This document shows positions 1 through 45,559 of a stretch of DNA of 64,000 bases, piece by piece. A program made the position numbers and the translations under genes. Below the pieces are notes generated by a model. That model was not told the origin of the DNA. It ran no database searches and saw only the letters and a program-made list of their open reading frames with translations. The first letter of the stretch is position 1. Each line of letters opens with the position of its first letter. Source of the DNA: Pleurocapsa sp. (GTDB taxonomy: Bacteria; Cyanobacteriota; Cyanobacteriia; Cyanobacteriales; Xenococcaceae); assembly GCA_050330395.1 (NCBI GenBank), contig JBHJNW010000088.1:5787-69786 (forward strand), given 5' to 3'.

Positions 1-2219
1 GACTATTACTCAATTTCCAGCTACCCGCAGCTATTGGTTTACACATCAACGGAGACGCACTGTATAAGTCGATTAACCTCCCCGTACATCAGCTAAACTA
101 CAACGGCATTCCGCATCAGTATGTGGGCAGAATTAGAGCCTTAAGCGATGGTCTGATCTATTCTTTGGGACTAACTTTGGCAGGAATAGTCTTGTGGCTG
201 TGCCATCTTTATCTCAGCCTGCCACAAATTACCTTGTTAGCAATTGCCTTAACTGTATTGCTGCTGCTAGTACGCTTACCGATGGGCAGGTTTTATACCC
301 AAGGTTTAGAAGAGATGATTCGCGCTGATACAATTAATCTAGATGATTTTCAGTTCAATAGTACTCAGCTACCTGCTCAATCCAGCAAGGCGATCCGAGA
401 ATTTTTAACTGATGGCGATCGCTTTACCCAAATGAAAGGTTTAGAATTGGCTGCTAATATTGGCAATCCGAGTCAGTTTTTTAACGAAGTCAAGGCTTTA
501 TTACCCGAAGCAGATAGTTCCGTGCGGGAGGGAATCTTGAAGTTGTTTAGAAATAGCGATCGCGCAACTCTACAGCAGTTTGCCAATTTATTGACTGATG
601 ACAATCCTACAGTAAGAGCAACTGCGCTGGAAGTTTTGATTGCCAACCAATATACTTTTGATCCAGACCACCTCCAAGTTTTGATTGCCGATAGTAACCA
701 AGAAGTAAAGGCGTTGGGTTTAGTTGCTACATTTCAAGCCACCTCAGCCGAAGAATTAGATTCCAGCATTGCCGAACAGTTTTGGCAGCTAGAATTAACC
801 GACGCTACAGCCAAAGCGATCGCCTCAGTTGTGCGCCATAGTGAAAACCCTGAGTTTATTACTCTGATTGAATATTTACTACCCCAAGCTAGCCCCGAAG
901 CAAAACAAGAAGCACTTAATGCTTTAGTTAATATCGCTTCTCCTCAAGACCATAATTTAGCCAAAATTGCGGCGGCTGAAATTGAACATTACGATCCAGC
1001 AGTTCGGGTTTGCGCATTCAAAATATTAGAAATTACCCATTGCTCTGAAGCTTTGCAGCAAGTTACTAGAGGATTTGATGATGATGATGCACGAGTGCGT
1101 CAACAGGTAGCTAGTACTATATCCGCTTATGGGAAATTAGGCTTAACTATCGCTCAAGAACATTTAACCTCAGGAGATCCTCATGTAGTTAATACAGCGA
1201 TCGCGGCGATCGCTCTGTTTAAAAGCAAGCAAGCTAACGAAATTCTTTTTAAGCACCTCACCCCGGAATTTCAGCAGTTTAACCAGACTCGTAAGTGGCA
1301 ACAACAGATACCAAGACAAGATCCTAACTGGCGATTATTGGCAGTGGCAATTGAAGACTATCAGCAGCGGTTATTGCAAAAGGTGCTGTATATTTTGTCT
1401 TGTTTAGGATATTCCCGCACCGTTAACTTAGTCAAACGTATTTTGGCAACTGGCGATCGCCGTGATTTAGCTAATGCAGTGGAAGTTCTCGCTTCAATCA
1501 ATCATCGTCGCTTTGTTCAACCTCTGATGCCTTTACTAGAAGAGACGGTATCAGAACAACAGCCCCAAACCGAGATCGAGCCTACTCCTCAATGGCTGCA
1601 AACTAAAGGCTACAAAATACTCTTAGAGGCGTTAAATTCAAGCGATCGCTGGATCAAAACAGGTGCGTCCGTAGCCCTGGCGACTGTACCTAAAACTCTA
1701 ATCAAAGATTCCCATCCCATCGTACAATCAGTTGCACCAGAAATTATTCCTGTTCAGCCGACCTGTTCCATTAGCATTTCTATGAATCGATTACTTTTAC
1801 TACGCAACGTTGCCTTATTTAAAAATCTAACTCTTGATGAACTATTTCCGATCGACCAGGCTTTAGAACAAAGACAAGTACTAGCTGGAGAAACTATTTA
1901 CAAAGAAGGAAGTTGGGGCGGGCATCTATATATTATTGCCACAGGCAAAGTACAGATTGTCAAAGAACTTGATGGCGAACCACAAGAGATTAAGCAGTTG
2001 ACTACAGGACAGTATTTTGGCGAAATTGCCCTGTTTGATGAAGCTCCTCGTTGGGACAGTGCGATCGCAATTGAAGACACTGTATTACTCTGTCTAGAAA
2101 AGAAACGTTTTATTAGCCTGATTACTCAACGCCCCCATATCATTTTAGAAATCTGTCGGTTTTTGAGTCAGAGATTACGGGAAACTGATAAATATATGTC
2201 TGCGAAAAAACCCTGTTGA
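1..2219 (+). CDS. HEAT-repeat protein with a C-terminal cyclic-nucleotide-binding domain. It is 5'-truncated by the window edge, and the N-terminal part looks like the last TM helices of a transporter domain.
   Basis: The reading frame is open from nt 3 with no stop, so the listed GTG at 123 is probably internal. Hydrophobic helices come first, followed by repeated HEAT-like units (xVRxxAxxxL). The C-terminus carries a cNMP-binding signature (FGEIALFDEAPRWDSAIA). Confidence 0.7.
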   Translation, partial: LLLNFQLPAAIGLHINGDALYKSINLPVHQLNYNGIPHQYVGRIRALSDGLIYSLGLTLAGIVLWLCHLYLSLPQITLLAIALTVLLLLVRLPMGRFYTQGLEEMIRADTINLDDFQFNSTQLPAQSSKAIREFLTDGDRFTQMKGLELAANIGNPSQFFNEVKALLPEADSSVREGILKLFRNSDRATLQQFANLLTDDNPTVRATALEVLIANQYTFDPDHLQVLIADSNQEVKALGLVATFQATSAEELDSSIAEQFWQLELTDATAKAIASVVRHSENPEFITLIEYLLPQASPEAKQEALNALVNIASPQDHNLAKIAAAEIEHYDPAVRVCAFKILEITHCSEALQQVTRGFDDDDARVRQQVASTISAYGKLGLTIAQEHLTSGDPHVVNTAIAAIALFKSKQANEILFKHLTPEFQQFNQTRKWQQQIPRQDPNWRLLAVAIEDYQQRLLQKVLYILSCLGYSRTVNLVKRILATGDRRDLANAVEVLASINHRRFVQPLMPLLEETVSEQQPQTEIEPTPQWLQTKGYKILLEALNSSDRWIKTGASVALATVPKTLIKDSHPIVQSVAPEIIPVQPTCSISISMNRLLLLRNVALFKNLTLDELFPIDQALEQRQVLAGETIYKEGSWGGHLYIIATGKVQIVKELDGEPQEIKQLTTGQYFGEIALFDEAPRWDSAIAIEDTVLLCLEKKRFISLITQRPHIILEICRFLSQRLRETDKYMSAKKPC

Positions 2220-2246
2220 TTCTGAGAAGGAGAGTATTAAAAGCCT

Positions 2247-2753
2247 TTAGCTTTTAGTTAAACTATACATCTCTACATTTAAGCCGTGATAAATTAGCTT
2301 TTTTTCTAGCTTCATGCCTAGCTTTTTAGCTACCCTAACCGACCGAATATTATCAGGATCGATTAAACAGATAAAACGTTGAAAATTAAATCTTTGCTGA
2401 CCATATTCTAAGACCGCTTTAGCTGCTTCGGTAGCCAAGCCTTGTCCCCAATATTTTTTTGCTAACCGATAGCCAATTTCTACTTCTTGCTGCTGCTCAA
2501 CCGATTGAATAAAAAAACCGCAGTAGCCAATCAACTCCTGAGTTTGCTTATGAATTAAAGCATATAAACCAAACCCACATTCAAGGTAAGAGAGCAATCT
2601 CTGTTCAATAAACTGTCTAACTTGCTGGCGATTATGTACTCCAATAATGGAATATCGCATTACTTCAGCATCACCCAAAATTGGTATCAAAGCTTCTCGA
2701 TCGCCAATGGTAATATATCTAAGGGTTAATCTAGAAGTCTCGATGATCTTCAT
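2247..2753 (-). CDS. GNAT family N-acetyltransferase (RimJ/RimL-like)
   Basis: 168 aa. Acetyl-CoA-binding-type motif YWGQGLATEAAKAVLEYG, and the typical N-terminus TxRLxLR. Confidence 0.75.
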   Translation of the reverse strand: MKIIETSRLTLRYITIGDREALIPILGDAEVMRYSIIGVHNRQQVRQFIEQRLLSYLECGFGLYALIHKQTQELIGYCGFFIQSVEQQQEVEIGYRLAKKYWGQGLATEAAKAVLEYGQQRFNFQRFICLIDPDNIRSVRVAKKLGMKLEKKLIYHGLNVEMYSLTKS

Positions 2754-2888
2754 GAAGTCTCCAGCGACTAAATTAATATTAAAACAACTAATGCTTTGTT
2801 TATCAATAAGTTAACAGACTACTAGTAGTTGAAATACTCGCTTTCTCTTATGCACCTGTTGGCGATCGCTACCGAATTAAGCACACGA

Positions 2889-4802
2889 TTAATTAACCTT
2901 GTTAGCATTTATTTTGCTACTGGGCGGTATACCTTCAATATTGATTATGCCTTGAATCACCGAGCCTACTATTGGTGCAGCAACAGTAGAGCCATAAGTA
3001 TGTTCTCCGCGAGGCTCATCAACTACGGCTAAAACTGCGTAACGAGGAGCTTCGACTGGAAATAAACCAACAAAACTAGTGATTTTTGCTGTTTCATCGT
3101 ATCCACCCTGGTTAACGGCTTTTTGGGAAGTTCCTGTTTTTCCAGCAATTCTGTAGCCTGGAATCTTAGCTGCGTAACCACTACCTTCTTCAACCACCGT
3201 TTCCATCATTTCTAGAACAGTAGTAGCGGTTTTAGGAGAAAATATTTGCTTACTATTGGATGGCTGAAAATAGTGGAGATAGCCTTGATAATCTGACAAA
3301 CCCCTAACTACATGAGGCGTGATTAATTTACCTTTGTTGGCCAATGCTGCATGGAGTTGAATTAGCTTGAGGGGTGTTAGCGAAAAACCTTGACCAAAAG
3401 CTGTAGTGGCGGGTTCAATTTCCCTAACAGTAAATTCTACCTCGTTTTTTAATCTACCTGTGGTGTATCCTGGAATATCAAATTCTAACTCCTCCTCAAT
3501 GCCTAATTTCTGTAAATCCCGATAGTAGTCGAGAGGTTTCATCCGATGCATGATCTTAATCATCCCCACGTTACTAGAGTACTGAAGAATTTCTGGCAAA
3601 GTTAATTCTCCTCGCGCACCTTTTTTTTCAAAATCATGGTTACGCACCACAGCATCTTTAATCTTAATTTCTCCCGTATCATCAAAGGTATCCTGGGGAG
3701 AAATAACTCCCGCATCTAAAGCCAAAGCAATATTAATCGGCTTAAAAGTAGAACCAGGCTCGTAAAGATCGGTAATTGCCCAATTTTTGAATAGCCGAAA
3801 ATCAGTAGTTTCATAGTATGTATTAGGATTATAAGTCGGCTCGGACACCAAAGCGGCGATCGCCCCATCGCGAACATCCATGACAATTACCGCACCCTGT
3901 TTGGCCTTATACTGTTCCATCTGCTGCTTTAAGGCATTACGAGCAATTTGTTGTAAACGTAAGTCAATTGTTAACTGTAATCTCAGATCGTCAAAGTTAA
4001 ATAGCTGTTGCGATCGCTCTAAATCCCCTGGATAAAATACGGCTTTTTCTCGATCAAAGCTACGCTTCATTTTCCAGCTTATCGGCTTGCGTTCGAGAAG
4101 TTTGTTTTGAGTGTATTCTACTCCTGCCTGAGGGGCGCGGCTGCTATCGCGGTTGACATAGCCTGTTACCTCTGCTGCCATTGTTTGGTGAGGATAAAAA
4201 CGGGTGTAGTTTTGCTTTAAATCTAAACCATCAATTTGTAGTGCGGCAATTTTTGCTTGGGCAGATTCAGGTAAATCTTCCGCCAAAAGAATTCCCCAAT
4301 CTTGTTGAGCAAAAATTGCTAACAATTCTTCAGGGGTTTTGTTGCCTAATATATCTGACAGCTGATCGGCGATTTCTGCTGCTGGTACTGGCTGAGAATT
4401 CCGTTTAAATAAATGAGGATGAATGTAGAGAGTATAGGTAATTCGATCTGTTGCTAAAACATTTTGTTGGCGGTCAACAATTTGACGACGAGGGATATAA
4501 AAATTAAGCCTAGTTGTTTGCTGATCTTGAGCTATTTGGGTTAGTTTTTTTCCTTGGGGAGCTTGTTCGTATATGATTAAAGGATCAACGATTTGGAGAT
4601 AATAGAGTCTTGAGCCTAAACCTAGGGTACCAAAAACTAGTATGCCCCAGATCAAAAACAGCCTTAATAGCGGTTTATTTTTACCCTGATTCTGGTAAAC
4701 ATTATTAAAAGTATGGTGGTTGTACTGTAGCTTTCTCGGAGTTGGTCGAGTTGAATTGCGTTTAGTCAATCTGAGAGGGAGTTGAAACTTAGATTTAGAC
4801 AT
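2889..4802 (-). CDS. ftsI: Class B penicillin-binding protein / peptidoglycan D,D-transpeptidase (FtsI-like)
   Basis: N-terminal TM anchor plus transpeptidase motifs STFKP (SxxK), SSN and KTGT. It lies downstream of an FtsL-like bitopic protein. Confidence 0.8.
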   Translation of the reverse strand: MSKSKFQLPLRLTKRNSTRPTPRKLQYNHHTFNNVYQNQGKNKPLLRLFLIWGILVFGTLGLGSRLYYLQIVDPLIIYEQAPQGKKLTQIAQDQQTTRLNFYIPRRQIVDRQQNVLATDRITYTLYIHPHLFKRNSQPVPAAEIADQLSDILGNKTPEELLAIFAQQDWGILLAEDLPESAQAKIAALQIDGLDLKQNYTRFYPHQTMAAEVTGYVNRDSSRAPQAGVEYTQNKLLERKPISWKMKRSFDREKAVFYPGDLERSQQLFNFDDLRLQLTIDLRLQQIARNALKQQMEQYKAKQGAVIVMDVRDGAIAALVSEPTYNPNTYYETTDFRLFKNWAITDLYEPGSTFKPINIALALDAGVISPQDTFDDTGEIKIKDAVVRNHDFEKKGARGELTLPEILQYSSNVGMIKIMHRMKPLDYYRDLQKLGIEEELEFDIPGYTTGRLKNEVEFTVREIEPATTAFGQGFSLTPLKLIQLHAALANKGKLITPHVVRGLSDYQGYLHYFQPSNSKQIFSPKTATTVLEMMETVVEEGSGYAAKIPGYRIAGKTGTSQKAVNQGGYDETAKITSFVGLFPVEAPRYAVLAVVDEPRGEHTYGSTVAAPIVGSVIQGIINIEGIPPSSKINANKVN

Positions 4803-17963: not shown

Positions 17964-19145
17964 GTGTTGCAATCCAATAAGCAATACCCTGATTACAACC
18001 AAAGTAATTCTGAGGAACTATTGCTTCAACTATTATTGTTTGTAGATAAACGCTCTTCTTCCGATGAGCAAGTTCAAGAAATTCAGGCTTACTTGGAGAG
18101 TTTACAATCTGATTACGCTTTTAAGTTAAATGTGGTTGAGATCGAAAAACAGCCTCATTTAGTAGAATTTCTGAAGCTGGTTGCCACTCCTGCTTTGGTT
18201 AAGATAGCTCCAGCGCCCCGACAGACTTTAGCGGGAAGCAATTTAATCAAGCAGTTAGAAAAATGGTGGCCTAAATGGAAGACCTTTTCAAAAGATTTAA
18301 AAGCAGCAAGCGAAAATGAACCTAATGGGCTAGAAGAATCAAATTACCCACTAGCTCAGCAAAGTTATTCTATTAAAGATATTGAACTATCTGACGAAAT
18401 ATTTAGCCTGAAGCGAGAAAAAGAAGAACTGGCTGCACAGTTACGGTTTAAAGATCAGATTCTGGCTATGTTGGCTCACGATTTGCGGACACCGCTGACA
18501 GCAGCTTCCATGGCAGTAGAAACTATTGAACTATCTGAGCAAAATGACCGCTTAGAAGCTAAAAAGCTTAAAGCTCTCAAACATAGGCTTTTTCGACAGG
18601 CAAAAAATCAATTCGGCATCATGAATAGCATGATTAGCGAATTATTACAAAATTCTCAGAGTGCGAATGCTAAGTTAGCAGTTAAGCCTAGAGAGTTAGA
18701 TTTACATGCCTTATTCCAAGAAGTAATTAGTCAGTTTGATGTCCGGCTAAAGCAGAAACTGATGACTTTTCAACAAGATATTCCTCAAGATCTTCCGCGA
18801 GTTTATGCTGATGAAGAGTTAATTCGTCAGTTAGTGGGCAACCTGCTTGACAATGCCATCAAATACACTCCCAAGCAAGGTAAGATTTCGTTATCCGTAT
18901 TGCACCGTACAAATCAAAAGGTTCAGGTCAGTATTTGTGATACAGGACCAGGAGTTCCCCCAGAGAAAAGAGAACGCATTTTTGAAGATAGCTTCCGTCT
19001 ACAGCGCGATCGCGAGTTAGAAGGCTATGGATTAGGGTTAGCCATGTGTTATCAGATAGTTTGCGCTCATTACGGTCAAATTTGGGTTGAAAGCTCTCCT
19101 GAATCAGGTAGCTGTTTTCAATTCACTTTGTTGGTATATAAATAA
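17964..19145 (+). CDS. sasA: Circadian output histidine kinase SasA (KaiB-like N-domain plus HisKA/HATPase)
   Basis: N-terminal KaiB/thioredoxin-like segment (LLLFVDKRSSSDEQVQ...ATPALVKI), H-box LAHDLRTPL, and G-boxes DTGPGV and GYGLGL. The start codon is GTG. Confidence 0.8.
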   Translation: MLQSNKQYPDYNQSNSEELLLQLLLFVDKRSSSDEQVQEIQAYLESLQSDYAFKLNVVEIEKQPHLVEFLKLVATPALVKIAPAPRQTLAGSNLIKQLEKWWPKWKTFSKDLKAASENEPNGLEESNYPLAQQSYSIKDIELSDEIFSLKREKEELAAQLRFKDQILAMLAHDLRTPLTAASMAVETIELSEQNDRLEAKKLKALKHRLFRQAKNQFGIMNSMISELLQNSQSANAKLAVKPRELDLHALFQEVISQFDVRLKQKLMTFQQDIPQDLPRVYADEELIRQLVGNLLDNAIKYTPKQGKISLSVLHRTNQKVQVSICDTGPGVPPEKRERIFEDSFRLQRDRELEGYGLGLAMCYQIVCAHYGQIWVESSPESGSCFQFTLLVYK

Positions 19146-34628: not shown

Positions 34629-34943
34629 ATGTCTCAACAACACGCGGTAGGCGTAATCCAAACTTTAGGTTTTCCTGCTGTTTTAGCTGCTTCTGATGCG
34701 ATGTTAAAAGCTGGTCGCGTCACTCTAGTTTATTTTGACAAGGGAGAAAGTGGTACTTTTGTCATTGCGATTCGTGGTCCAATTTCGGAAGTAAGACCGT
34801 CAATGGAAGCGGGATTAAAGGCAGCGGAAAATACTTTTGGTGGCGAGGTAACAACCCACTATACCGTTCCTAATCCGCCTGACAATGTGGTTACGGTTTT
34901 GCCCATTGATTATACCGAACAAGTAGAGCAATTTCGCTCCTAG
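34629..34943 (+). CDS. ccmK3: Carboxysome shell protein CcmK3 (BMC-H)
   Basis: 104 aa. AVGVIQTLGFPAVLAASDAMLKAGRVTLVYFD...VPNPPDNVVTVLP closely matches the CcmK3 sequence of Synechocystis as I recall it. Confidence 0.8.
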   Translation: MSQQHAVGVIQTLGFPAVLAASDAMLKAGRVTLVYFDKGESGTFVIAIRGPISEVRPSMEAGLKAAENTFGGEVTTHYTVPNPPDNVVTVLPIDYTEQVEQFRS

Positions 34944-35068: not shown

Positions 35069-35419
35069 ATGCCATCTCAATCTGCCGTGGGGTCGATCGA
35101 AACAAAAGGATTCCCAGGCATCTTAGCAGCAGCCGATGCTATGGTAAAAGCCGGGCGAGTAACCTTAGTCGGCTATATTCGCGTCGGTAGTGCGCGCTTT
35201 AACGTTAATATTCGTGGCGATGTTTCAGAAGTTAAAACGGCTATGGCTGCGGGAATTGAGGCTGTCAAAAAAGCCGAAGGCGCGACTTTAGAGTCTTGGG
35301 TGATTATTCCTCGTCCTCATGAAAATGTCTGTGCCGTATTACCAATTGACTATACTGATGAAGTCTTGCCTTATCTAGATCGCGTCGAGGGTAGAACATT
35401 GCCTATTGCACCCAATTAA
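35069..35419 (+). CDS. ccmK4: Carboxysome shell protein CcmK4 (BMC-H)
   Basis: 116 aa. SAVGSIETKGFPGILAAADAMVKAGRVTLVGYIRVGSARFNVNIRGDVSEVKTAMAAG...IIPRPHENV is near-identical in pattern to known CcmK4. Confidence 0.85.
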   Translation: MPSQSAVGSIETKGFPGILAAADAMVKAGRVTLVGYIRVGSARFNVNIRGDVSEVKTAMAAGIEAVKKAEGATLESWVIIPRPHENVCAVLPIDYTDEVLPYLDRVEGRTLPIAPN

Positions 35420-35510: not shown

Positions 35511-36065
35511 CTAATTATCCATCGTAGATAACTTTCTTTTTAAAGCTCTGACATAGAGGAAAATCGGGAACTGATAATACTCAATAATTAGCCAAATAAT
35601 ACAGCTTAGGTGAGCGCAAAAAGTCAAAATTGTCCAAGTTAGAGGAAGCCACGATAGCAAGCTACCATCCATAGGCGGAAATAAATATACTCCTGTGCCA
35701 ATGATCGATGTGGGAATCACCACAAAAGCCAAAGCAAATAATACATAAGCCCATCCCACTTCAGCACCTTCTCGGTGGATACCCTTCCAGATCTTACCAT
35801 TCCAGTACCATGTCAGAGGAAGTTGACTGTCTACCATTTTGAGTAACTGTTTATCAAAGTTAGTCGTAAAAATGTGCTGACAAAAATTACAAGAAAAAGT
35901 CTCCATTAAAGGCATTTCGGTAACTTTACCATGACGACATACGGGACAAGGATATTCTCCACGGTCATGAAAGCGATGATGCTCTGTCCATTCTTGTTGT
36001 AAAAGATCGATTTTCTCGATTTTCGAGTTTGTGAGTGAACTATGAGAATTATGAGCGTTAGCCAT
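35511..36065 (-). CDS. Membrane protein with an N-terminal zinc-ribbon-like domain
   Basis: 184 aa. CPVC...CNFC pairs in the N-terminal half and two or three TM helices in the C-terminal half. Confidence 0.55.
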   Translation of the reverse strand: MANAHNSHSSLTNSKIEKIDLLQQEWTEHHRFHDRGEYPCPVCRHGKVTEMPLMETFSCNFCQHIFTTNFDKQLLKMVDSQLPLTWYWNGKIWKGIHREGAEVGWAYVLFALAFVVIPTSIIGTGVYLFPPMDGSLLSWLPLTWTILTFCAHLSCIIWLIIEYYQFPIFLYVRALKRKLSTMDN

Positions 36066-36410: not shown

Positions 36411-37427
36411 TTAGAGGTTGGTAGTCAATCTAGCTTTTCTGAGCATAAACTGCAAAAGCGTTTCTTCTCTGGAAATAATGTCAGCTTGACTTTCCATTCC
36501 CAATTGCAGCGAACAGTGATTTTTTTCTCTACCAAAAATATTGCTATTGGGAGTAATCAAAACTTCATAAAAAGAGGTCTGTTTTTGGACTTGAGAACTA
36601 TTATCCGTCTGTTGAGTTGGTGGTTTACTGGTGTCTTTAGCAATTTGACGAACCTTACCTTGAAGAATGCCGTAGTCAGGATAGGGACAAGCAGAAACTC
36701 GCATCTGTACTTCTTGTCCTACCTTTAACTTGCCAATATCTTGAGCTAATACTGCTGCTTTCATTTCGCTCTGAGAATTTTCGGGAATGATTCGGGTGAT
36801 TTCTTCTCCAGGCTGTACGGTTTGTCCTTGATTACGTAAACCAAGCTGAAAAATTGTCCCTGCGGCGGTGGCAGCTATCTTAGTTTGGCTAAGCTCTTTG
36901 TTGACCTGATTTAGCTCTTCTGTATCTTGCTCTAGCTGCTTGTCGATCTCGATGCGTTGTTGAATTAAAGCTTCTGTTTCTCGATTTAAACCTGCTATAG
37001 TGGCTCGACCAGATTTTTTGGCTTGTTCGATGCGCTGTAAAGATATATCAATCTCTGCGGTCGAGGGATTGAGTGCAGCAACTGCTCGTTGCTGTCTGGC
37101 TTTGGCAGCTTCTAGCTCTTGCTCTTGTCGGTTGACTTCTAACTCAGCTTCTGCCAGTTGATCTTTACCAATTGCTCCAGCTTGCGCTACCGATTTATAG
37201 CGGTTATATTTCGCTCTAGCGGCGTTTAAAGTTGCTTCAACTGCTTTAACTTGAGCTTGGGATTCTGCTACTTGAGTAGTAACCTCAGTTTTTTTATCTT
37301 GATAGTTGCGCTGACTGCCTGCCAGTTCTGAGTTGGCTGCTGCAACCTCGGATTGATTGCGCTCGGTTTCGGCAATCATTTGACTGGCTAGACTAGCAAT
37401 TTGAGCGTTGAGTTGTGTTAACTGCAA
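36411..37427 (-). CDS. HlyD-family periplasmic adaptor, C-terminal fragment (coiled coil plus beta-barrel). It continues the upstream ORF after a frameshift.
   Basis: Long Q/A/E-rich coiled coils, then barrel-like segments (GTIFQLGLRNQGQTVQPGEEITRIIP; VSACPYPDYGILQGKV). The listed start is a TTG inside an open frame that extends upstream to 37512. Confidence 0.75.
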   Translation of the reverse strand: MQLTQLNAQIASLASQMIAETERNQSEVAAANSELAGSQRNYQDKKTEVTTQVAESQAQVKAVEATLNAARAKYNRYKSVAQAGAIGKDQLAEAELEVNRQEQELEAAKARQQRAVAALNPSTAEIDISLQRIEQAKKSGRATIAGLNRETEALIQQRIEIDKQLEQDTEELNQVNKELSQTKIAATAAGTIFQLGLRNQGQTVQPGEEITRIIPENSQSEMKAAVLAQDIGKLKVGQEVQMRVSACPYPDYGILQGKVRQIAKDTSKPPTQQTDNSSQVQKQTSFYEVLITPNSNIFGREKNHCSLQLGMESQADIISREETLLQFMLRKARLTTNL

Positions 37428-37512
37428 TCTTTGTTGCTCTATGCCTGTTTTGAGTTGGTTTTGCTTGGTTTGAAAGCGAGAACGATCAATAATGGCGATC
37501 GCTTGTCCTTGC

Positions 37513-38298
37513 TTAACGGTTTTGAGCCTCTTTGACCAAGATCTGGGAAATTTGGCCTTCCACTGCTGCTTGAACCAGATGTAATTCTGTTACTGGTCGA
37601 ACGATTGCACTGGCTCTGACAACTGTTTTGTATTTAAAGACAGAGGCAGCAGGAATAGCTAAGACAATCAGCATAACTACTGAAATTCCTCCCTTAGTAA
37701 GCCATTGACTTACAGGAGGCAATAAATCATCGGCTTGGTTTGATGCTAGTTGCTGAGAGTCTGATTGACGAATGCTGGAATAGTTGTCTAATGATGCTGT
37801 TACTTGGGGACTGTTTATTTTAGAAGAACGATCAACATTTGGCGCTAGCTGAATTTTTTTGAATAATTGAGAACCAAAATGAGAGTAGCCTTTGCCAACT
37901 GAGTGAATCGCCGTCACCAAATCTTCTGTGGGTGTGGTTTTAAGGATATAGCCATCCGCTCCCGCAGCGATTATTTTTTGAACATATTCTTGATGTTCGT
38001 AGCTACTGAGGATCAAAATTTTACAGTTAGGAAAACGCTGGGAAATAACCTTGGTTGCCTCAATACCGTTCATTTTAGGCATTTCGATGTCAATTAGTAC
38101 CACATCTGGCTTTAAAGACTCTACCTGAGCGATCGCTGTCTCGCCGTCGCTGGCAAGGCCCACAATTTGTAAATCGACTCTCGAAGACAACATTTGCTGC
38201 AATTTATGCTGGACAAATTTTTGGTCGTCAACTAGCAAAATTTTGATGACATCAATAGCAGGAACTGGGAGTGGGAAATTATTTTGATTGGTATACAT
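37513..38298 (-). CDS. Response-regulator receiver domain fused to the TM anchor and first strands of an HlyD adaptor (N-terminal fragment)
   Basis: REC motifs ILLVDDQ, DVVLIDIEMP (phospho-acceptor Asp context), ILILSS and DGYILK. These are followed by a linker, a TM (GISVVMLIVLAIPAASVF) and the HlyD-type start VRPVTELHLVQAAVEGQISQILVKE. The ORF stops 3 codons after a 4-A run. Confidence 0.75.
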   Translation of the reverse strand: MYTNQNNFPLPVPAIDVIKILLVDDQKFVQHKLQQMLSSRVDLQIVGLASDGETAIAQVESLKPDVVLIDIEMPKMNGIEATKVISQRFPNCKILILSSYEHQEYVQKIIAAGADGYILKTTPTEDLVTAIHSVGKGYSHFGSQLFKKIQLAPNVDRSSKINSPQVTASLDNYSSIRQSDSQQLASNQADDLLPPVSQWLTKGGISVVMLIVLAIPAASVFKYKTVVRASAIVRPVTELHLVQAAVEGQISQILVKEAQNR

Positions 38299-38331
38299 TA
38301 TCGATCAATAAAAATGATTCAATGCCTAGTT

Positions 38332-40539
38332 TTAATTCGGCTTAAACGGTAAATCGGCGATCGCTCTGCCGTTACGATTACCTCGAGAAAAAGAGCCATC
38401 GAGGAAATCTAAATGTTCTCCCGATATCTCGCGTAATTCGTCTGGAGTCCCCTGGATTTTTAGTTTTCCTTGGTCTAACATCACAATCCAATCAGCGCGC
38501 TCGATTACTTTGGGACGATGGCTAATCATAATCGTCGTTTTATTTTGGCGATGACATAGCAATTGTTCTAGAACCTGATGTTCGCTCACAGGGTCTAATG
38601 CGCCTGTAGATTCATCTAAGATCAACACTGGTGGATTGTTAACTATCGCTCTGGCGATCGCTAATCGCTGTTTTTGTCCCCCCGATAGATTTGCTCCAAA
38701 TTCACCTAAAACGGTTTGATATTTATCGGGTAATTTACTAATAAATTCATCCGCACCAGCAATTTTACAAGCTTGGAGGATTTGTTCAAAGGTGATTAGT
38801 GGATAACCCAAGGTGAAATTTTCAATAATCGAACGACTCCAAAAATGCGCTTCTTGCGGAATTAGTACTACCTGCTGTCGCCAACAGTCTAAATCGATGT
38901 CAGATTGGTTATACAAACCGATGCTAAGATTGCCAGATTGAGTCGAATAAAGATTGGCAATTAATTTAGATAGGGTGCTTTTACCGCATCCAGATTTACC
39001 AGCTAGAGCAGTTACTTTTCCCCCAGGAATATTTAAAGAGAAATCCTGGAGCAATTCAACTCTACCAGGATAGCTAAAGCCGATATTTTCGCAAACGATA
39101 TCTGCATTGCCAGCCAGTTGAACTACCGGCTTGTTTTTTTCTAGGTTGCTTTCTGGAGTATGATCGATAACTTCTGTAAGACGCTGAGTAGCAGTTTTTA
39201 CACGAGTCCATTCATCGACAAATTGAATTGTCGTACTAATCAAACCCAAAAAATTAGCAGTCATGCTATTGAAAGCTAACAGCTGTCCGATACTTAAGCG
39301 ATCGCTAAAAACCAGGGTGCTACCATACCAAAGCAGTGTCACACTGCCGATACTCGAAACTAACTTAGAAAAGGTGTAGTTAAAAATTCCAATTTGAGCA
39401 GTACGGTAAGTTTGATTGGCAAAGCTACCGAAGCGTACCTGCAATTCTGACCATAATTGGGGTGCAGCAGCCGTAGTCTTAAAAGTTAAAGCACCTTTAA
39501 AGGTTTCGACTAAAACCCCTTGATTTTCTGAATCTAAAACCATAACTCGACGGACTTTTTGTTGCAGCGTCGGTAAAAAGATTACTGTCGAGATGGTCAT
39601 GCAAACAGCAATGGCTATTGCCACCAAGGTGAGGGATACACTGTAAAACAGCATAAATCCCAAAGAAATTATAGCGATGAAAAACTGACTGGGTAAGCTA
39701 ATTACTACCTGCGCTACCAACTGATTAATTTCTTGCACATCTTCTAGACGGCTGACTATTTCGCCGCTACGACGAGCTTCAAAGTAGGTTAGGGGCAAAC
39801 GTAATAGCGTTCTAGCAAATTCTAAAATTAGTCCCAACTCTAGTTTTTGGGCGAAATGAGTGATCAGGTTGTATTCAACCAATTCCAGCCACGCACTAAC
39901 TAGATTCATCGCGATCACAGCGATCGCTAATCCCGTTAATAATTGTCTGTCGCCTCGAATTAATACATCATCAGTCAAAATTTGAATTAAAAAAGGATAA
40001 GCCAGAGAGAGTAAACCAATTACCTGAGCGCAAATGGAGGCTTCAATTAACGTACCTCGATAAAGCCATAGCTGATTAAAAAATCTGCTCAAACCTTGAC
40101 CGTTTTTTTCATCTTGCTGGTGATAAAAATGTATTGGATCTGGTTCTAACAGCAGCATGATCAAATCAGTCCAACTTTCGACTAATTCTGTACGAGAAAT
40201 ATAACGAATTCCGCTTGCTGGATCGGCAATAATATATTTGCCACGACGTTGACCATGTAACACCACCCAGTGATAACCTTTCCAGTGAATAATGGCTGGC
40301 AAAGAAGCAGATTTAAGATTATCAATAATATTTGGGGAAGCCCGCACTGGACGAGTATTCAAACCCAGAGAAGCTGCACCTCTTCTCAATCCCAGCATCG
40401 TTGTTCCTAGTTGCCCCGTACCCACGGCTTCGCGAATGCGATTTAAAGTTAAGGTACGTCCATAATGCTGGCAAATCGTTCCTAAACAAGCCGCACCACA
40501 GTCTGTTTCACTATGCTGTAAAACAACTGAATATTTCAC
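38332..40539 (-). CDS. Bacteriocin-type ABC exporter with an N-terminal C39 peptidase domain (double-glycine leader processing)
   Basis: 735 aa. C39 catalytic Cys context QHSETDCGAACLG and His context GYHWVVLHG, six-TM ABC membrane domain, Walker A GKSGCGKST, signature LSGGQKQR, Walker B VLILDE. Confidence 0.9.
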   Translation of the reverse strand: MKYSVVLQHSETDCGAACLGTICQHYGRTLTLNRIREAVGTGQLGTTMLGLRRGAASLGLNTRPVRASPNIIDNLKSASLPAIIHWKGYHWVVLHGQRRGKYIIADPASGIRYISRTELVESWTDLIMLLLEPDPIHFYHQQDEKNGQGLSRFFNQLWLYRGTLIEASICAQVIGLLSLAYPFLIQILTDDVLIRGDRQLLTGLAIAVIAMNLVSAWLELVEYNLITHFAQKLELGLILEFARTLLRLPLTYFEARRSGEIVSRLEDVQEINQLVAQVVISLPSQFFIAIISLGFMLFYSVSLTLVAIAIAVCMTISTVIFLPTLQQKVRRVMVLDSENQGVLVETFKGALTFKTTAAAPQLWSELQVRFGSFANQTYRTAQIGIFNYTFSKLVSSIGSVTLLWYGSTLVFSDRLSIGQLLAFNSMTANFLGLISTTIQFVDEWTRVKTATQRLTEVIDHTPESNLEKNKPVVQLAGNADIVCENIGFSYPGRVELLQDFSLNIPGGKVTALAGKSGCGKSTLSKLIANLYSTQSGNLSIGLYNQSDIDLDCWRQQVVLIPQEAHFWSRSIIENFTLGYPLITFEQILQACKIAGADEFISKLPDKYQTVLGEFGANLSGGQKQRLAIARAIVNNPPVLILDESTGALDPVSEHQVLEQLLCHRQNKTTIMISHRPKVIERADWIVMLDQGKLKIQGTPDELREISGEHLDFLDGSFSRGNRNGRAIADLPFKPN

Positions 40540-40749
40540 GCTTGACCTATCCTCAATGTAAGATTAAAATTTTAATTCTAAAAATGCTCGAATGTATCTC
40601 TTGTAGTTTATGGAGCAACCAATATGTACATCAACATGGCGTTATTTTTGCCAATCACTTCACTACTGATTAAAAATTGCTTGTCAATCTGTTGGAGACT
40701 AACCCACCACGTAATTTTTTCTCGTTAAATTCTGATATCATCTACATAA

Positions 40750-40787
40750 ATAAGGTCGCATCATCGTCAACTTGAATGCGACCTTAT
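40750..40787 (-). terminator. Hairpin between the precursor peptide gene and the exporter gene, a candidate partial terminator/attenuator
   Basis: 12-bp perfect stem ATAAGGTCGCAT / ATGCGACCTTAT with a 14-nt loop, located 73 nt downstream of the peptide stop codon. On the - strand it is followed by TTATGTAGATG. Confidence 0.55.
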
Positions 40788-40859
40788 ATACCTAGGGCAG
40801 TTAGTTTGGTAGTTTTCTCAAGCTATCTATAACTAGCTGCTCTTTCAGTAGCAATCTAC

Positions 40860-41045
40860 TTAATGGTGACCTTTGCCACGACCTTTGCCACCTTTTTCAT
40901 CGTAGCCATAACCGTAGCTATAACCATAATAACCATAGCCATAACCGTAGCCATAACCATCGCCACCAGAGATTTGTTCCATTTCAGAATCTACTAACTC
41001 GGTAAATTCTACTGATTGCTGGGAAAGATTTTTTTCGTTTAACAT
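40860..41045 (-). CDS. Double-glycine-leader precursor peptide with a Gly/Tyr-repeat core and a basic His-terminated tail
   Basis: MLNEKNLSQQSVEFTELVDSEMEQISGG | DGYGYGYGYGYYGYSYGYGYDEKGGKGRGKGHH. The leader has hydrophobic residues at -4 (I), -7 (M), -12 (L) and -15 (F), Glu at -8 and GG at -2/-1. The gene lies directly upstream of a C39-ABC exporter. Confidence 0.8.
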   Translation of the reverse strand: MLNEKNLSQQSVEFTELVDSEMEQISGGDGYGYGYGYGYYGYSYGYGYDEKGGKGRGKGHH

Positions 41046-41908
41046 GAGCCTATTTCCGTTAATAAAGTTGTCTGTTTACAAAGTCGCTTGGATTTAATTC
41101 AAACTTACTTCCAACCCAATGCCAATAATTAAGATTGAGCCAGAGTATTGAATAAAAGAACTGTAGCCTTTTCCCAAGACGCTTTTAACTCCACCAGAAC
41201 CAAAAATTTGAAGCACCGTGTCGTTACCAGAGGAATATCTTCTAGATTGGTAAGATTTAGCACCAATTAGCTTGATCTTTCTATTCTGAAGAAAATAAAA
41301 TTATTCCAATTTAGGTTGGCTTTACTGCCTAACATAGTGTTTCTGATAATTGGCATTAACATATTCTTTTGAGAATATTGTCAGTGGAGAAACATCAGTA
41401 AAAAAAATCAAAACTTTTTGAATTTTTTACTGAGTTAAACATACATGATTTTGCTAAGCATGACAATAATATTTGGTTAAAAAAAGGTTAATATAATAAC
41501 ACCAATAGAATTGAAATATATAATCATCAGTGCTTATAGCAATTGTAAAAAAGTTTTAAATTTATGTCTGTTTAATTGTTTAACTTGAATAAGATGTTGT
41601 GTAGTATACATTTCATTGTAATGATTATAGATAATATAAATAAACCAAATTAATGTAATATAAACAACAAATAATTACAATTTTTAAAATAGATTAAAGA
41701 GCTAATTGTCAAAAATTATTTGAAAAACATGGTAATTTTAAACAGAAGATTCTTCAGCTTTTGGCAGAATAATCGTGTTTTTCTATCTAGCCTGGAAACT
41801 AATTGAGCCAAGGTAAAATTGAAATGGCTAGGTAGGGAAGCGATAGCGCGTCAGATTCGATTAACCGCGATATACGGATTTAATGATCTGGCGATTTATA
41901 CGCCTTAT

Positions 41909-42370
41909 TTAGGCGATATTCGGAGGAATTGAACCTAGTTGCTGAATCTGCTGTTGGATTAATTCAGCTACGCGATCGCGCTTGATTTCAATACCACGAT
42001 TAAGATTTTGCGAATCTTCTAGAAAAATAATGCTGTCTACCTGCTGTAGAGAAAACAGCCTAAACAAAAGCTGGATGACAGAAATTGGCATCGCCATGAG
42101 ATCGGGGTTAATTTTACCTTGAAAAGTAGCGGCATCCTGAACTGAGACAAAAGCGTAAATTACTTTTTTGTCCTGGTTTAATTGCCGATTAGTAATCGTA
42201 GTTAAGACCCAATCTGCGGCGAGATTTTGTAGCACATAATATTCGAGATGCTGAAGCTGACCCGCCAACAATTTTAATACTGGAGCGATCGCCTGTTCTA
42301 CTACTATGGCTGGTACACCATGATTTGCTGCATCTTTAATTATGATCTCTAACTGTTGCTCCAAGTTCAT
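41909..42370 (-). CDS. Hypothetical protein
   Basis: 153-aa ORF with coding-like composition. No motif recognised. Confidence 0.5.
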   Translation of the reverse strand: MNLEQQLEIIIKDAANHGVPAIVVEQAIAPVLKLLAGQLQHLEYYVLQNLAADWVLTTITNRQLNQDKKVIYAFVSVQDAATFQGKINPDLMAMPISVIQLLFRLFSLQQVDSIIFLEDSQNLNRGIEIKRDRVAELIQQQIQQLGSIPPNIA

Positions 42371-42540: not shown

Positions 42541-44253
42541 CTATGCTTTAGCTTTTTTGTTTTTCTTTTTCTCCGCTTGTTTGGCTCTTTTTGCCGCTTC
42601 TTTGGCTGCTTTTAATTCTGCTTCGCCTTTTTGTCGGGCTTTTTCTTTTTCTTCGGCAATCTTGTCTAAATAGTAATGATAATCGCCACGATAAGCAATC
42701 AATTCTCCATCGCGAATTTCGACAATTTTGTTAGCAGTTTGAGAAATAAAATAGCGATCATGAGAAACAATCAACACCGTACCGTCGTAATACTGTAGAG
42801 CTTCTTCTAGCATCTCTTTGGCGGGAATATCTAAATGATTGGTCGGCTCGTCTAAAATCAACAAATTTGCTGGTCTCAGCAGCATTTTTGCCAATGCTAA
42901 ACGGGCTTTTTCACCACCGCTTAAGGCGGCTACTTTTTTAAAGGCGGTATCGCCACTAAACAAGAATTGTCCTAGTAAAGTCCGAACTTCCTCGTTTTTC
43001 CACTCAGGAACTTCATCATGAACCGTATCCATGACGGTTTTCTCTAGATCTAACGCTTCAGCTTGATTTTGCTCAAAATAACCAGGAATAACGTTGTGTT
43101 TACCTAATTCAACCGTTCCCTCGTCGAACTTTTCCATTCCCATAGCCATACGCAACAAAGTGGATTTTCCCGCCCCGTTTGGCCCTAAGATCGCAATGCG
43201 ATCGCCTCGTTCAATGGTTAATTGGGCCCCTAAAAATAAAATGTTATTATTATAGGCATGAACTAAATCCCTAATGATAACTACTTCTCTACCGCTTCTA
43301 GGTGAAGGGGGAAATCGAAACTTGAGAGTTCTTAAATTGGCAACTGGTGCTTCCACAAGTTCTACTTTATCTAACTGCTTTTCTCTACTTTTAGCTTGGG
43401 TACTGCGAGTAGCACTGGCTCTAAATTTCTCGATAAATTCTTGCTGTTTGGCAATTTCTTTTTGCTGTCGCTCGTAAGTTGCTCCTTGAGACAAGCGCGC
43501 TTCAGCTTTTTGCTGGAGATAGGCGGAATAATTGCCTAAATAAGTAGTCGAAATACCTCGCTCTGTTTCGACGATTTTGGTGCAGAGACGATCTAAAAAT
43601 TCGCGGTCATGAGAGACAATAACCATTGGGGTATTAATGCCTCGCAAATAATTTTCTAACCATTCGATGGTTTCTAAATCTAGATGGTTAGTCGGTTCAT
43701 CCAGCAGCAACAAATCTGGTTCTTGCAGCAGAATTTTTCCTAAACTCATTCGCATCTGCCAGCCACCACTATAAGAGCTTACCAGGCGATCGCCATCTTC
43801 GGAAGTAAATCCCATTTCAGGTAGAATTTTTTCAATTTGAGCATCTAGGGTATAGCCTTCAATAGCCTCAAATTGACGCTGTAGCCTATCCAGCTGATCA
43901 ATTAAACGATCTAGCTCATCGGGATCGGCTGTCTCCATCTTTTGCTGTACTTGTCCCATCTCCTGCTGTATTGCATTAGCTTCCGTAAAAACCGTCCAAA
44001 ATTCTTCGTAAACTGTTCGCGTCGGTTCAACTTCAAATTCTTGAGTCAAATAAGCAATTTTGAGGTTAGCTGGACGAATTACTTCTCCAGATGTGGCTTC
44101 AATTTCACCGCTAATGATTTTGAGCTGAGTCGATTTTCCTGCACCATTAACCCCGACTAAACCAACCCTTTCTCCAGGTTTAACTTCCCAGGTAACGTCT
44201 TTGAGAACTTCCCCCGTAGTGTAAATCTTCTTGATGTGTTCGAGTCGTAACAT
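42541..44253 (-). CDS. ABC-F family ATPase (two fused ABC cassettes, no TM domain)
   Basis: 570 aa. Two Walker A motifs (GVNGAGKST, GPNGAGKST), two signatures (YSGGWQMR, LSGGEKAR), an inter-domain linker and a Lys-rich C-terminal tail. Confidence 0.9.
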   Translation of the reverse strand: MLRLEHIKKIYTTGEVLKDVTWEVKPGERVGLVGVNGAGKSTQLKIISGEIEATSGEVIRPANLKIAYLTQEFEVEPTRTVYEEFWTVFTEANAIQQEMGQVQQKMETADPDELDRLIDQLDRLQRQFEAIEGYTLDAQIEKILPEMGFTSEDGDRLVSSYSGGWQMRMSLGKILLQEPDLLLLDEPTNHLDLETIEWLENYLRGINTPMVIVSHDREFLDRLCTKIVETERGISTTYLGNYSAYLQQKAEARLSQGATYERQQKEIAKQQEFIEKFRASATRSTQAKSREKQLDKVELVEAPVANLRTLKFRFPPSPRSGREVVIIRDLVHAYNNNILFLGAQLTIERGDRIAILGPNGAGKSTLLRMAMGMEKFDEGTVELGKHNVIPGYFEQNQAEALDLEKTVMDTVHDEVPEWKNEEVRTLLGQFLFSGDTAFKKVAALSGGEKARLALAKMLLRPANLLILDEPTNHLDIPAKEMLEEALQYYDGTVLIVSHDRYFISQTANKIVEIRDGELIAYRGDYHYYLDKIAEEKEKARQKGEAELKAAKEAAKRAKQAEKKKNKKAKA

Positions 44254-44722: not shown

Positions 44723-45559
44723 ATGACAACAGTTCTAATCGTTGATGACTCAAGCAGCATTAGAGAGTTTTTGAAAATTAACTTATCTAGTGAACTAAAT
44801 ATAAAGATCATTGGGTTGGCAGATAATGGAGAGAGAGCGCTCTCTTTGGTTGAAGAACATCAACCAGACGTGATTTTGATGGATATCGATATGCCTGGCC
44901 AAATCAACGGCATACAAGCAACTGAAAAAATTGTTCAGCGTTTTCCTGAGATCAAAGTTCTACTCCTAACCAGTCAAGATGATAGAGAACAGCTCAATCT
45001 AGCTCTCAAAGCAGGTTCTCGAGGCTATATTCTTAAAAATACTAGCGTCAAAGATATTGCCAACATTATTCGCTTAGCGGAGAAAGGCTTTTTTCAAATT
45101 GGTCCTATACTAGGCAACTGGGATGGTTCGCTACACAGCAATATGCAATCAAATAATGGGACTAAAGCAATAGTCCAAAATTCCCGTAAAGTTGGAGCTA
45201 TCGTCCAGCAAGACACAGAGTCTAATAACAACTATAGCCAAGCATCTGAAATGAATTATGTCTTATCTAATTTGACATCTGGACTATTTCAATTGCAAGA
45301 AACAATTAAATCTCAGGAAGATACGATTGTTAATTTAACTAATCAATACTCCCTGGTTCAACAAGAAATTAGAGCTAAGCTAAACAAAGATAAGCGTACT
45401 TTTAATCCATCGAGAGTGCCTGGTTATAGTTACAAAATCGCCTCCAAAAGTCGTACTCTAAGAAGGCAACATCTTTTATTTATCAGTAGTTTTTTCTTGG
45501 GAGTATTTACTGTGCTTGTTTTAATGTTGGTAATTATGACTTTAGGAACAGTAGTTTAG
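44723..45559 (+). CDS. Response-regulator receiver protein with a coiled coil and a C-terminal TM anchor (no DNA-binding output)
   Basis: REC motifs VLIVDDS, DVILMDIDMP, VLLLTS and RGYILK. These are followed by a low-complexity linker, a coiled coil (LFQLQETIKSQEDTIVNLTNQYSLVQQEI) and a terminal TM (LLFISSFFLGVFTVLVLMLVIMTL). Confidence 0.75.
   Translation: MTTVLIVDDSSSIREFLKINLSSELNIKIIGLADNGERALSLVEEHQPDVILMDIDMPGQINGIQATEKIVQRFPEIKVLLLTSQDDREQLNLALKAGSRGYILKNTSVKDIANIIRLAEKGFFQIGPILGNWDGSLHSNMQSNNGTKAIVQNSRKVGAIVQQDTESNNNYSQASEMNYVLSNLTSGLFQLQETIKSQEDTIVNLTNQYSLVQQEIRAKLNKDKRTFNPSRVPGYSYKIASKSRTLRRQHLLFISSFFLGVFTVLVLMLVIMTLGTVV

Follow-up and report, generated by a model that had tools for sequence, protein, structure and literature searches.

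A probable type I secretion cassette for a glycine/tyrosine-repeat peptide in a Pleurocapsa-like cyanobacterium, with a receiver-fused adaptor and probably inactive in its present copy

What kind of export system is encoded where a double-glycine (GG) leader peptide, an ATP-binding cassette (ABC) exporter with a C39 peptidase domain and an HlyD-type adaptor carrying a phospho-receiver (REC) follow one another on the same strand, and is that system still functional? Such a gene cluster occupies positions 41045-36411 (minus strand) of a 64-kb stretch of contig JBHJNW010000088.1 of Pleurocapsa sp. (assembly GCA_050330395.1, positions 5,787 to 69,786); this whole stretch is referred to here as the window, and coordinates are those of the window unless another locus is named. 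A first-pass annotation, made from the sequence alone, had listed four elements at this locus (a precursor peptide, a hairpin, an exporter and an adaptor), and all four were found in place. The reading preferred here, with a probability of roughly 0.6, is that the locus is a chromosomal cassette for type I peptide secretion, built around a peptidase-containing ABC exporter (PCAT), in a Pleurocapsa-like cyanobacterium, with a matrix-type cargo as the preferred product, control through the receiver, and a copy that is inactive or has just been inactivated in this genome. As to the source organism, the threonine dehydratase (IlvA) encoded in the window shares a cluster at 90% identity with proteins of Pleurocapsa sp. 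FMAR1 and Pleurocapsa minor. The general plan of a PCAT/type I peptide exporter is already known; the receiver-fused adaptor and the low-complexity cargo family are undescribed in the literature searched.

The exporter gene (38332-40539, minus strand, GTG start) encodes a protein of 735 aa that was identified as a PCAT from Pfam and structure matches. Pfam analysis showed Peptidase_C39 (E 7e-35), ABC_membrane (E 4e-32) and ABC_tran (E 3e-29) domains, and comparison with known structures gave full-length matches to PCAT1 (E 1e-106), ComA and HlyB. Its C39 domain, annotated at first as intact, proved to be canonical: in an alignment with the PCAT1 peptidase domain, Q8, C14, H90 and D106 coincide with its Gln/Cys/His/Asp motifs. 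The nucleotide-binding motifs GKSGCGKST, LSGGQKQR, LILDE and ISHR (Walker A, signature, Walker B and H-loop, respectively) were read in the translation, and the protein thus possesses the features of the PCAT class, namely a C39 domain with catalytic residues, a type I transmembrane (TM) domain and a nucleotide-binding domain. PCAT1 of Clostridium thermocellum (PDB 4RY2) is its best full-length structural relative; unlike the present system, PCAT1 is from a Gram-positive bacterium and operates without an adaptor or an outer-membrane step. The exporter is 87.6% identical to its orthologue in L001, the closest relative (L numbers denote loci fetched for comparison). No NCBIfam model passes its cutoff for the ABC protein, the adaptor or the peptide, the exporter equivalog and subfamily models all being below cutoff.

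The putative substrate is encoded at 40860-41045 (minus strand) by an open reading frame (ORF) of 61 aa, which by direct translation reads MLNEKNLSQQSVEFTELVDSEMEQISGG followed by DGYGYGYGYGYYGYSYGYGYDEKGGKGRGKGHH, with the leader at 40962-41045 and the 33-aa core at 40863-40961. In agreement with the first-pass annotation, the leader MLNEKNLSQQSVEFTELVDSEMEQISGG fits the GG consensus, G-1, G-2, I-4, M-7, E-8, L-12 and F-15 all being read from the sequence. This ORF is the sole match to a strict GG-leader regular expression in the six frames of the window, and no match occurred in 100 shuffles. The cognate GG-leader substrate expected of a PCAT is accordingly present in the ORF adjoining the exporter, with its cleavage predicted from sequence. 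The mature core consists of 70% Gly+Tyr. Its DNA is an imperfect 6/12-nt tandem repeat (40903-40965), with the basic tail arising from a 12-nt duplication, and the predicted mature product has a monoisotopic mass of 3650.56 Da and an isoelectric point (pI) of 8.2. The small ORF is conserved, its leader being kept in approximately twenty-five homologous peptides, and this together with its conserved gene position rules out that it is spurious. Database proteins matching the GY repeat (P0123-P0130) share a YGYGY run but lack the GG leader of this family and occur in other contexts; they were set aside as irrelevant.

The adaptor follows the exporter gene after 33 nt. It had been described as one HlyD protein with an N-terminal receiver; the gap and the ORF beginning with a Response_reg domain are as described, but the gene is divided between two ORFs. 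The 5' part (37513-38298, minus strand, 261 aa) comprises the receiver (residues 18-135), a variable linker, a TM helix at about residues 199-221 and about forty periplasmic residues, and terminates ..VKEAQNR at a premature TAA. The 3' part, in a shifted frame (36411-37522, minus strand), encodes lipoyl-like strands, a long alpha-helical hairpin and a beta-barrel; this HlyD body lies in an ORF (36411-37427) that is open further upstream and in a different frame from the receiver ORF. Pfam matches were obtained for the N-terminus (Response_reg, E 5e-28) and for the body (HlyD_3, HlyD_D23), so that five of the Pfam families suggested for the cassette at the outset (Peptidase_C39, ABC_membrane, ABC_tran, Response_reg and HlyD_3) were recovered. 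TIGR01843 (type_I_hlyD) scored 165.7 bits on the adaptor, which is under its cutoff of 208.65. The elements of an HlyD-type adaptor (TM anchor, lipoyl-like domain, beta-barrel and helical hairpin) are all present. Those of a receiver, i.e. the acidic DD pair, phospho-acceptor Asp, Ser/Thr, aromatic switch residue and Lys, are represented by D24, D25, D70, S98, Y117 and K120, which are invariant in family alignments of 25 and 33 sequences.

An AlphaFold2 (AF2) model of the intact orthologue P0004 (mean pLDDT 77) displays a confident (beta-alpha)5 receiver at residues 18-135, a low-confidence region at residues 147-221 (variable linker and TM helix), and a periplasmic part with lipoyl-like strands, helices of approximately 100, 30 and 58 residues and a beta-barrel. 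Foldseek analysis of this model showed the N-terminus to resemble the NarL-family receivers VraR, LiaR and DesR (TM-scores of 0.91-0.95) and the periplasmic part to resemble the adaptors EmrA, MacA and AcrA (EmrA and MacA with E 1e-15 to 1e-18). The linker between receiver and TM helix is 60-130 aa long, of variable length in the alignment and predicted to be disordered. In place of the short cytoplasmic tail of an ordinary adaptor there is thus an intact NarL-type receiver, attached through a long and variable tether that is probably disordered. The N-terminal module of the fusion is also seen without a periplasmic body in a 278-aa protein encoded at 44723-45559 (plus strand), which consists of a receiver sharing 43% identity with the adaptor receiver, then a linker, and a TM helix at the C-terminus; a 277-aa Response_reg gene occupies the matching position in L001. 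Tethered to the membrane, this protein could act as a phosphate sink or compete with the adaptor for the same kinase. It was rejected as a part of the cassette, as it is syntenic solely in L001 and was not seen beside the cassette in L086-L088.

The break in the adaptor gene was placed at 37520-37523 (minus strand), where a run of four A (A4) stands against the three (A3) implied by homologues. Deletion of one A yields a protein of 628 aa that aligns across the junction with single-ORF homologues of 619-660 aa, the repaired junction ..ILVKEAQTVKQGQAIAIIDRSRF.. being colinear with the consensus ILVKEGQxVxxGxxIATIDxSR. The extra A is also present in a contig of GCA_964557795.1 and in a Logan contig of SRR3310984 seen in three samples; these are 100% identical to the window over 6.8 and 6.0 kb, respectively, and since two identical contigs reproduce it the lesion is probably real. 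The 369 codons past the frameshift contain no further stop and retain a mean identity of 0.72 to relatives, among the highest in the clade, and comparison of divergence with these relatives gave no sign of relaxed selection downstream of the shift, so the inactivation looks recent. Programmed frameshifting or transcriptional slippage at the A4 run was ruled out because homologues are uninterrupted and the run is short and shows no recognisable features of a recoding signal. A real and recent inactivating mutation is therefore the most likely explanation, while an error common to assemblies of overlapping read sets may be the source of the extra A. An intact frame joining anchor to periplasmic body is missing from the window and from both identical contigs and is retained by the homologues. 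With its adaptor frameshifted, the operon as it stands is probably unable to make a functional adaptor, and the secretion system is probably inactive or only just inactivated in this genome.

Comparison of genome neighbourhoods, which had been proposed as a check on the cassette, showed the arrangement of precursor, C39-ABC and REC-HlyD to be co-conserved in related cyanobacteria. One or two small ORFs precede C39-ABC and REC-HlyD in L001, L084/L085, L086 and L087/L088; L001 also shares the flanking genes of the window, whereas the other loci lie in unrelated genomic contexts. Among fusions that are 43-59% identical (L089, L090 and L091), C39-ABC is directly upstream and GG-leader genes are close by, and even at 25-30% identity (L032 and L025) C39-ABC is again found directly upstream of REC-HlyD. 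In L032 this upstream gene (419-3670, plus strand) encodes a C39-ABC protein of 1083 aa whose similarity to the window ABC begins at residue 376, which implies an N-terminal extension of approximately 375 residues. The extension could be a HetC-like sensor region, in which case both partners would bear sensor domains.

The fusion itself is widespread. The closest full-length relatives of the repaired adaptor (60-74% identity) all possess Response_reg and HlyD-type Pfam domains, and of 112 related clusters at 90% identity, 69 contain REC-HlyD as one uninterrupted ORF of 600-700 aa. At 50% clustering, at least seventeen representatives align to P0004 unbroken from receiver to C-terminus, and about forty of the best 150 relatives are of fusion length; in total, 388 proteins reach E <= 1e-30. 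In Nostoc, Scytonema and Pleurocapsa, HlyD proteins without the receiver, which share 45-55% identity over the HlyD part, are partnered by C39-ABC proteins of 60% identity; the GG cargoes of these loci are larger and unrelated. In a neighbour-joining tree of the HlyD part, which carries no support values and is suggestive only, the window falls in a large and almost wholly REC-fused clade, with other REC-fused lineages scattered among REC-less ones; such a pattern would fit either one ancient fusion that some lineages later lost or several separate gains. A scan of GTDB genomes returned, among the matches listed, mostly REC-less HlyD proteins or unrelated receivers and has little bearing on the frequency of the fusion in the close clade.

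The cargo is less constant than its leader. The leader pattern ..SV[EQ]F[ST]E[IL][AV]DSEMEQISGG is kept in every close locus, and a profile search recovered about twenty-five clusters, all unnamed or 'hypothetical' and none with a Pfam domain; a scan of JGI metagenomes with the leader alignment gave no matches. The cores that follow form an unannotated family of Gly/aromatic low-complexity sequences, many with a polyglutamine (polyQ) tract and a basic GHY(K) tail. The commonest, type B, reads DK[IF]I(Q)IFNP[YF]SFAAP[YF]GF.GPGFG, continues with a Gly-rich stretch, six to nine Gln and further Gly, and ends in an Arg/Lys-rich tail terminating in GHYK. Cores of other types consist wholly of repeats, namely (GYGG)n, (GGFDRGGFGK)n, (GYDNYGG)n and, in the window, (GY)n. 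Most cores are basic (pI 8.2-10.9), one exception being the type A core of L001 (pI 6.0). The initial description of the cargo as a low-complexity Gly/Tyr repeat thus stands, but the repeat turned out to be one fast-changing variant within a wider Gly/aromatic family. A 1-kb Logan contig, L094, is colinear with window positions 41481-40511 at 83-86% DNA identity except in the core, where DKIIQIFNPYSFAAPYGFIGPGYGGGYGGGGKKKGHYK takes the position of the GY repeat; a different core between conserved flanks indicates that the GY repeat is one allele at a rapidly changing position. The 3' flank of the window precursor matches the flank of the repeat-type gene in L001 and L084. The type B gene located next to the ABC gene in those two loci is absent from the window, and tblastn and blastn searches for a hidden type B precursor gave only a degenerate remnant of another type (type C, below). 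Other REC-HlyD cassettes encode further low-complexity cargoes at L091 3208-3462 (minus strand) and L086 4243-4494 (plus strand), among them a charged repeat (HRRRRRKKRRKGRGDDDDGGKGRRRGDDDDGG..) and (GGFDRGGFGK)n, a repeat of RGG/FG-like character. Exporters of this family may commonly have low-complexity peptides as their cargo.

Between precursor and exporter, the 320-nt spacer contains the 12-bp hairpin that had been reported there (40750-40787, minus strand), with stem ATAAGGTCGCAT/ATGCGACCTTAT, a variable loop and a weak U tail; its folding free energy is -24.2 kcal/mol and its z-score against shuffles -4.7. In L001, L084-L088 and L094, each precursor gene has after it a stem of the form AAGGTCGCAT/ATGCGACCTT, three pairs of which show compensatory changes. 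A single copy of the motif is present in the window, where none is expected. Among the 94 fetched loci (about 1.1 Mb) it is confined to those of the close clade, each precursor gene having one copy; the sole exception is a match to the variant pattern in L013. Rfam gave no match for the hairpin, and a known RNA family was thus not found.

The minus-strand unit extends further than was at first thought: its four elements are in place, but upstream of 41045 there are a degenerate second GG-peptide gene (41124-41362) and a promoter-like site (41438-41466). The latter, found by consensus scan, is sigma-70-like (-35 TTGTCA, 17 nt, -10 TATGTT) and a putative promoter only. It overlaps a motif, AAAGTTATGTA, conserved approximately 100 nt upstream of precursor genes in L001, L084, L086 and L088, and its region is homologous to the upstream regions of L088 and L094. 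The same kind of scan gave no promoter-like site on the minus strand in the interval from the hairpin to the start of the ABC gene. The cassette probably forms one transcription unit beginning near 41440. The degenerate gene, a type C pseudogene, was recognised by comparison with an intact ORF in L094, the leader of which ends ..NFVDLKDGEAELISGG and the core of which starts SYQSRKYSQGDDTVLQVFGPGG.. (around the cut site, ..DLKDGEAELISGG followed by SYQSRKYSQGDDTVLQVF..). Relative to L094, the window stretch has a 1-nt deletion, an in-frame TAG and a GG motif changed to GA. As just two examples are known, it is uncertain whether type C is a real gene.

These components suggest how an intact cassette would work. 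The promoter near 41440-41466 would drive the precursor gene or genes, and the stem-loop 3' of each of them would probably stabilise the precursor transcript or partly terminate transcription, with the exporter genes expressed at a lower level by read-through; in either way it would raise the ratio of precursor to exporter. Judging from family membership, the cytoplasmic C39 domain would bind the conserved leader and cleave after Gly28, and the unfolded 33-aa core (3.65 kDa) would leave the cell through the ABC protein, a hexamer of the HlyD-type adaptor and a TolC-like outer-membrane factor encoded elsewhere. An orphan histidine kinase would phosphorylate Asp70 of the adaptor. Phosphorylation would probably dimerise the receivers and so switch adaptor assembly or engagement of the ABC protein, placing secretion under post-translational two-component control. 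The receivers of VraR, LiaR and DesR dimerise on phosphorylation, and HlyD-type adaptors are reported to act as hexamers. Because the long, floppy tether makes rigid coupling through the membrane unlikely, the simplest mechanism would be phosphorylation-driven pairing of adaptor N-termini or an altered contact with the cytoplasmic domains of the ABC protein. In this scheme a TolC-type outer-membrane factor and a histidine kinase are needed from elsewhere in the genome, and the operon is not 'self-contained', as had been supposed. In a more specific form, offered tentatively, REC-HlyD would be a phosphorylation-switched secretion adaptor for prion-like or phase-separating Gly/Tyr/Phe/polyQ peptides with a cationic tail, which sessile Pleurocapsales would release on cue to build or glue their matrix.

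Several observations weigh against the preferred reading. No histidine kinase gene adjoins the cassette in the window and none is consistently present in related loci; the sole kinase in the 64 kb is SasA-like (KaiB domain, HisKA and HATPase_c; 17964-19145, plus strand), lies 18 kb from the cassette and is presumably a circadian output kinase unrelated to it. In L002 (7001-8935) and L003 (7001-8953), contigs of 5.8 and 6.1 Mb of ENA assembly ERZ25070591 that are described as complete genomes, REC-HlyD stands alone after a glyoxalase gene, with neither C39-ABC nor GG peptide within 7 kb. Pairing with the ABC protein is thus strong but not obligatory; the flanks of L003 (TauE, Usp and a Na/Ala symporter) are common to the intact L086 cassette, which suggests rearrangement. 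The hairpin was not called by a simple terminator scan, its U tract being poor, and rapid replacement of the core between conserved flanks is a bacteriocin-like pattern that argues against a purely structural role. In addition, the adaptor is split and the HlyD body as encoded here is without a membrane anchor. This last point leads to the view, to which slightly better than even odds are given, that the locus is at present a decaying, non-functional remnant whose GY peptide is not exported now: the premature stop parts receiver and TM helix from the HlyD body, the GCA_964557795.1 contig and the Logan contig from three samples bear the same lesion, the type C gene upstream has suffered a deletion, a stop codon and loss of its GG motif, and the type B gene of relatives is missing. 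The ABC gene and the GY precursor are nevertheless intact, and with 369 stop-free, conserved codons past the shift either the inactivation happened very recently or the extra A stems from an error of sequencing or assembly common to both; the assemblies concerned may come from overlapping read sets. This view addresses the state of one copy rather than the nature of the system. As regards that nature, the receiver might not gate export at all. It might act as a phosphate sink, mediate localisation or oligomerisation, or sense the state of secretion and signal it to another pathway, export being constitutive once the genes are expressed. The variable and predicted disordered linker of 60-130 aa, across which rigid conformational coupling is unlikely, would be consistent with this, as would the REC-less HlyD relatives that pair with the same kind of C39-ABC and the separate REC+TM protein conserved nearby without an HlyD body. 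We consider it rather unlikely, since the phosphorylation residues are strictly invariant down to approximately 30% identity, which favours selection on phospho-signalling, and since the receiver occupies the position of the HlyD cytoplasmic N-terminus, which is reported to act in substrate sensing and TolC recruitment. Gating of the adaptor by phosphorylation is suggested by these intact receiver residues.

The nature of the cargo is more finely balanced. That it is a self-assembling extracellular matrix or adhesion peptide, EbfG-like by analogy, is a guess that we prefer only slightly, and a cationic glycine-rich bacteriocin is nearly as likely. In the specific form of a class II microcin-like antimicrobial, cationic and glycine-rich, whose release the receiver would allow only on a signal of competition or density, this alternative is possible but doubtful. 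The layout of GG leader, C39-ABC and HlyD-family adaptor is the canonical one for microcins (PMC12219008), most cores are basic, the L001 type A core not being among them, and diversifying antagonism would give the pattern of a core swapped between flanks of 83-86% identity, with cores differing widely across loci. Core variation is, however, also explicable by slippage in tandem-repeat DNA. Moreover, verified microcin immunity genes are immediately adjacent to the microcin (PMC12219008), whereas no small membrane-protein gene or other immunity candidate is conserved beside the precursors in the cassettes examined. Cores of the (GY)n, (GYGG)n, (GGFDRGGFGK)n and polyQ kinds were not found in the microcin literature searched, and such extreme low-complexity Gly/aromatic/polyQ sequences are of the kind that self-assemble, which was counted against a bacteriocin. 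Self-assembling microcins in biofilms have been reported (PMC13188072). A third reading, in which the cargo is a pheromone and its sensor the kinase acting on REC-HlyD, with a positive feedback at the post-translational level comparable to ComC/ComAB/ComDE, seems highly improbable. The receiver is located on the secretion machine itself, and GG-leader pheromones are exported by PCATs in Gram-positive bacteria (PMC10986499); but low-complexity repeat cores of widely varying length and sequence would make poor specific ligands, and no kinase gene is linked to the cassette.

Comparison with described systems places the cassette with peptide secretion of the microcin and EbfG-PteB type, to which it may be likened with proposed direct two-component control added and with the system probably crippled in the present strain. 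It shares with CvaAB-TolC/microcin V of Enterobacteriaceae a GG precursor below 10 kDa, a cleaving C39-ABC, an HlyD-family adaptor encoded beside the ABC gene and an outer-membrane factor encoded elsewhere. It differs in the receiver on the adaptor, in the order of precursor first and then a conserved stem-loop, in the absence of an adjacent immunity gene from the cassettes examined, and in a Gly/Tyr tandem-repeat cargo as opposed to a globular or amphipathic microcin. In Synechococcus elongatus PCC 7942, EbfG1-4 are GG-motif proteins that require PteB for secretion and enable biofilm formation, EbfG1-3 being amyloid (PMC4997328, PMC9981879). There too, several small GG proteins are encoded in tandem upstream of a cyanobacterial C39-ABC (PMC4997328, PMC9981879), and the likeness to the present cassette is functional and contextual only; the role of those proteins is non-antibiotic (biofilm matrix, amyloid), and their secretion depends on the catalytic Cys. 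The cargoes described here are far more repetitive (GY, GYGG, polyQ) than EbfG. We know of no receiver on the adaptor of the EbfG/PteB system.

HetC of Nostoc PCC 7120 is a PCAT with a cyclic-nucleotide-binding (cNMP) sensor on the ABC protein (PMC10986499) and is a precedent for post-translational control of export by a signalling domain built into a cyanobacterial PCAT machine. In the present case it is the adaptor that bears the sensor, a receiver, and the substrate genes lie next to those of the machine, whereas HetC has neither an adaptor gene nor a GG substrate nearby. Clusters of C39-ABC, HlyD and GG precursors are widespread in cyanobacteria and were described as 'bacteriocin' clusters of groups I-VII by Wang, Fewer and Sivonen in 2011 (PMC3140520). 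The window cassette fits their general scheme, but the text of that paper does not contain the terms 'response regulator', 'receiver', 'glycine-rich' or 'tyrosine', and neither the REC-HlyD subtype nor this cargo family is described there. No description of the REC-HlyD adaptor or of this peptide family was found in the literature searched, which is not proof that none exists; this agrees with the first-pass annotation, which held the combination of GY-repeat cargo and receiver-adaptor to be uncharacterised.

If the adaptor is switched by phosphorylation, it would to our knowledge be the first example of a two-component signal whose direct target is the type I secretion machine itself and not transcription. 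A large review of type I secretion systems mentions two-component systems solely in transcriptional control. Type I and PCAT secretion are generally described as controlled at the level of transcription, and an adaptor-borne receiver offers a concrete model of signal-gated secretion. The cargo family is new to annotation, consisting of short peptides, predicted to be secreted, of GY, GYGG or GGF repeats or polyQ tracts with basic tails, which resemble eukaryotic low-complexity self-assembling sequences. Whether the cargo proves to be matrix or antimicrobial, either outcome would widen the roles presumed for cyanobacterial 'bacteriocin' clusters.

Beyond the cassette, searches of the window gave neither a modification enzyme nor an outer-membrane factor nor a candidate immunity gene, as the first-pass annotation had noted for the locus itself. 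Pfam scans of the large window ORFs and precomputed Pfam lists of related loci showed no enzyme for ribosomally synthesised and post-translationally modified peptides (LanM, radical SAM, YcaO etc.) beside the cassette, and no TolC-like gene lies in the 64 kb. Immediately upstream are genes for a 153-aa protein without a recognised family (41909-42370, minus strand) and an ABC-F (EttA/Uup-like) ATPase (42541-44253, minus strand); as both are syntenic in L001 and L084 and absent from cassettes elsewhere, they are flanking genes and not components. Downstream, a 184-aa protein (35511-36065, minus strand) possesses paired Cys-x-x-Cys motifs (zinc-ribbon-like) and, by eye, long hydrophobic TM-like stretches. 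Neither Pfam nor NCBIfam gave a match for it, and the other cassette loci lack it. The 184-aa and 153-aa proteins were ruled out as immunity or accessory factors, being missing from cassettes in other contexts. Shortly past the downstream end of the cassette, the opposite strand carries two carboxysome shell (BMC/CcmK-like) genes (34629-34943 and 35069-35419, plus strand), and BMC Pfam matches are listed for the same shell genes in L092. At the far end of the window, a 698-aa protein (123-2219, plus strand) carries HEAT repeats and a C-terminal cyclic-nucleotide-binding domain.

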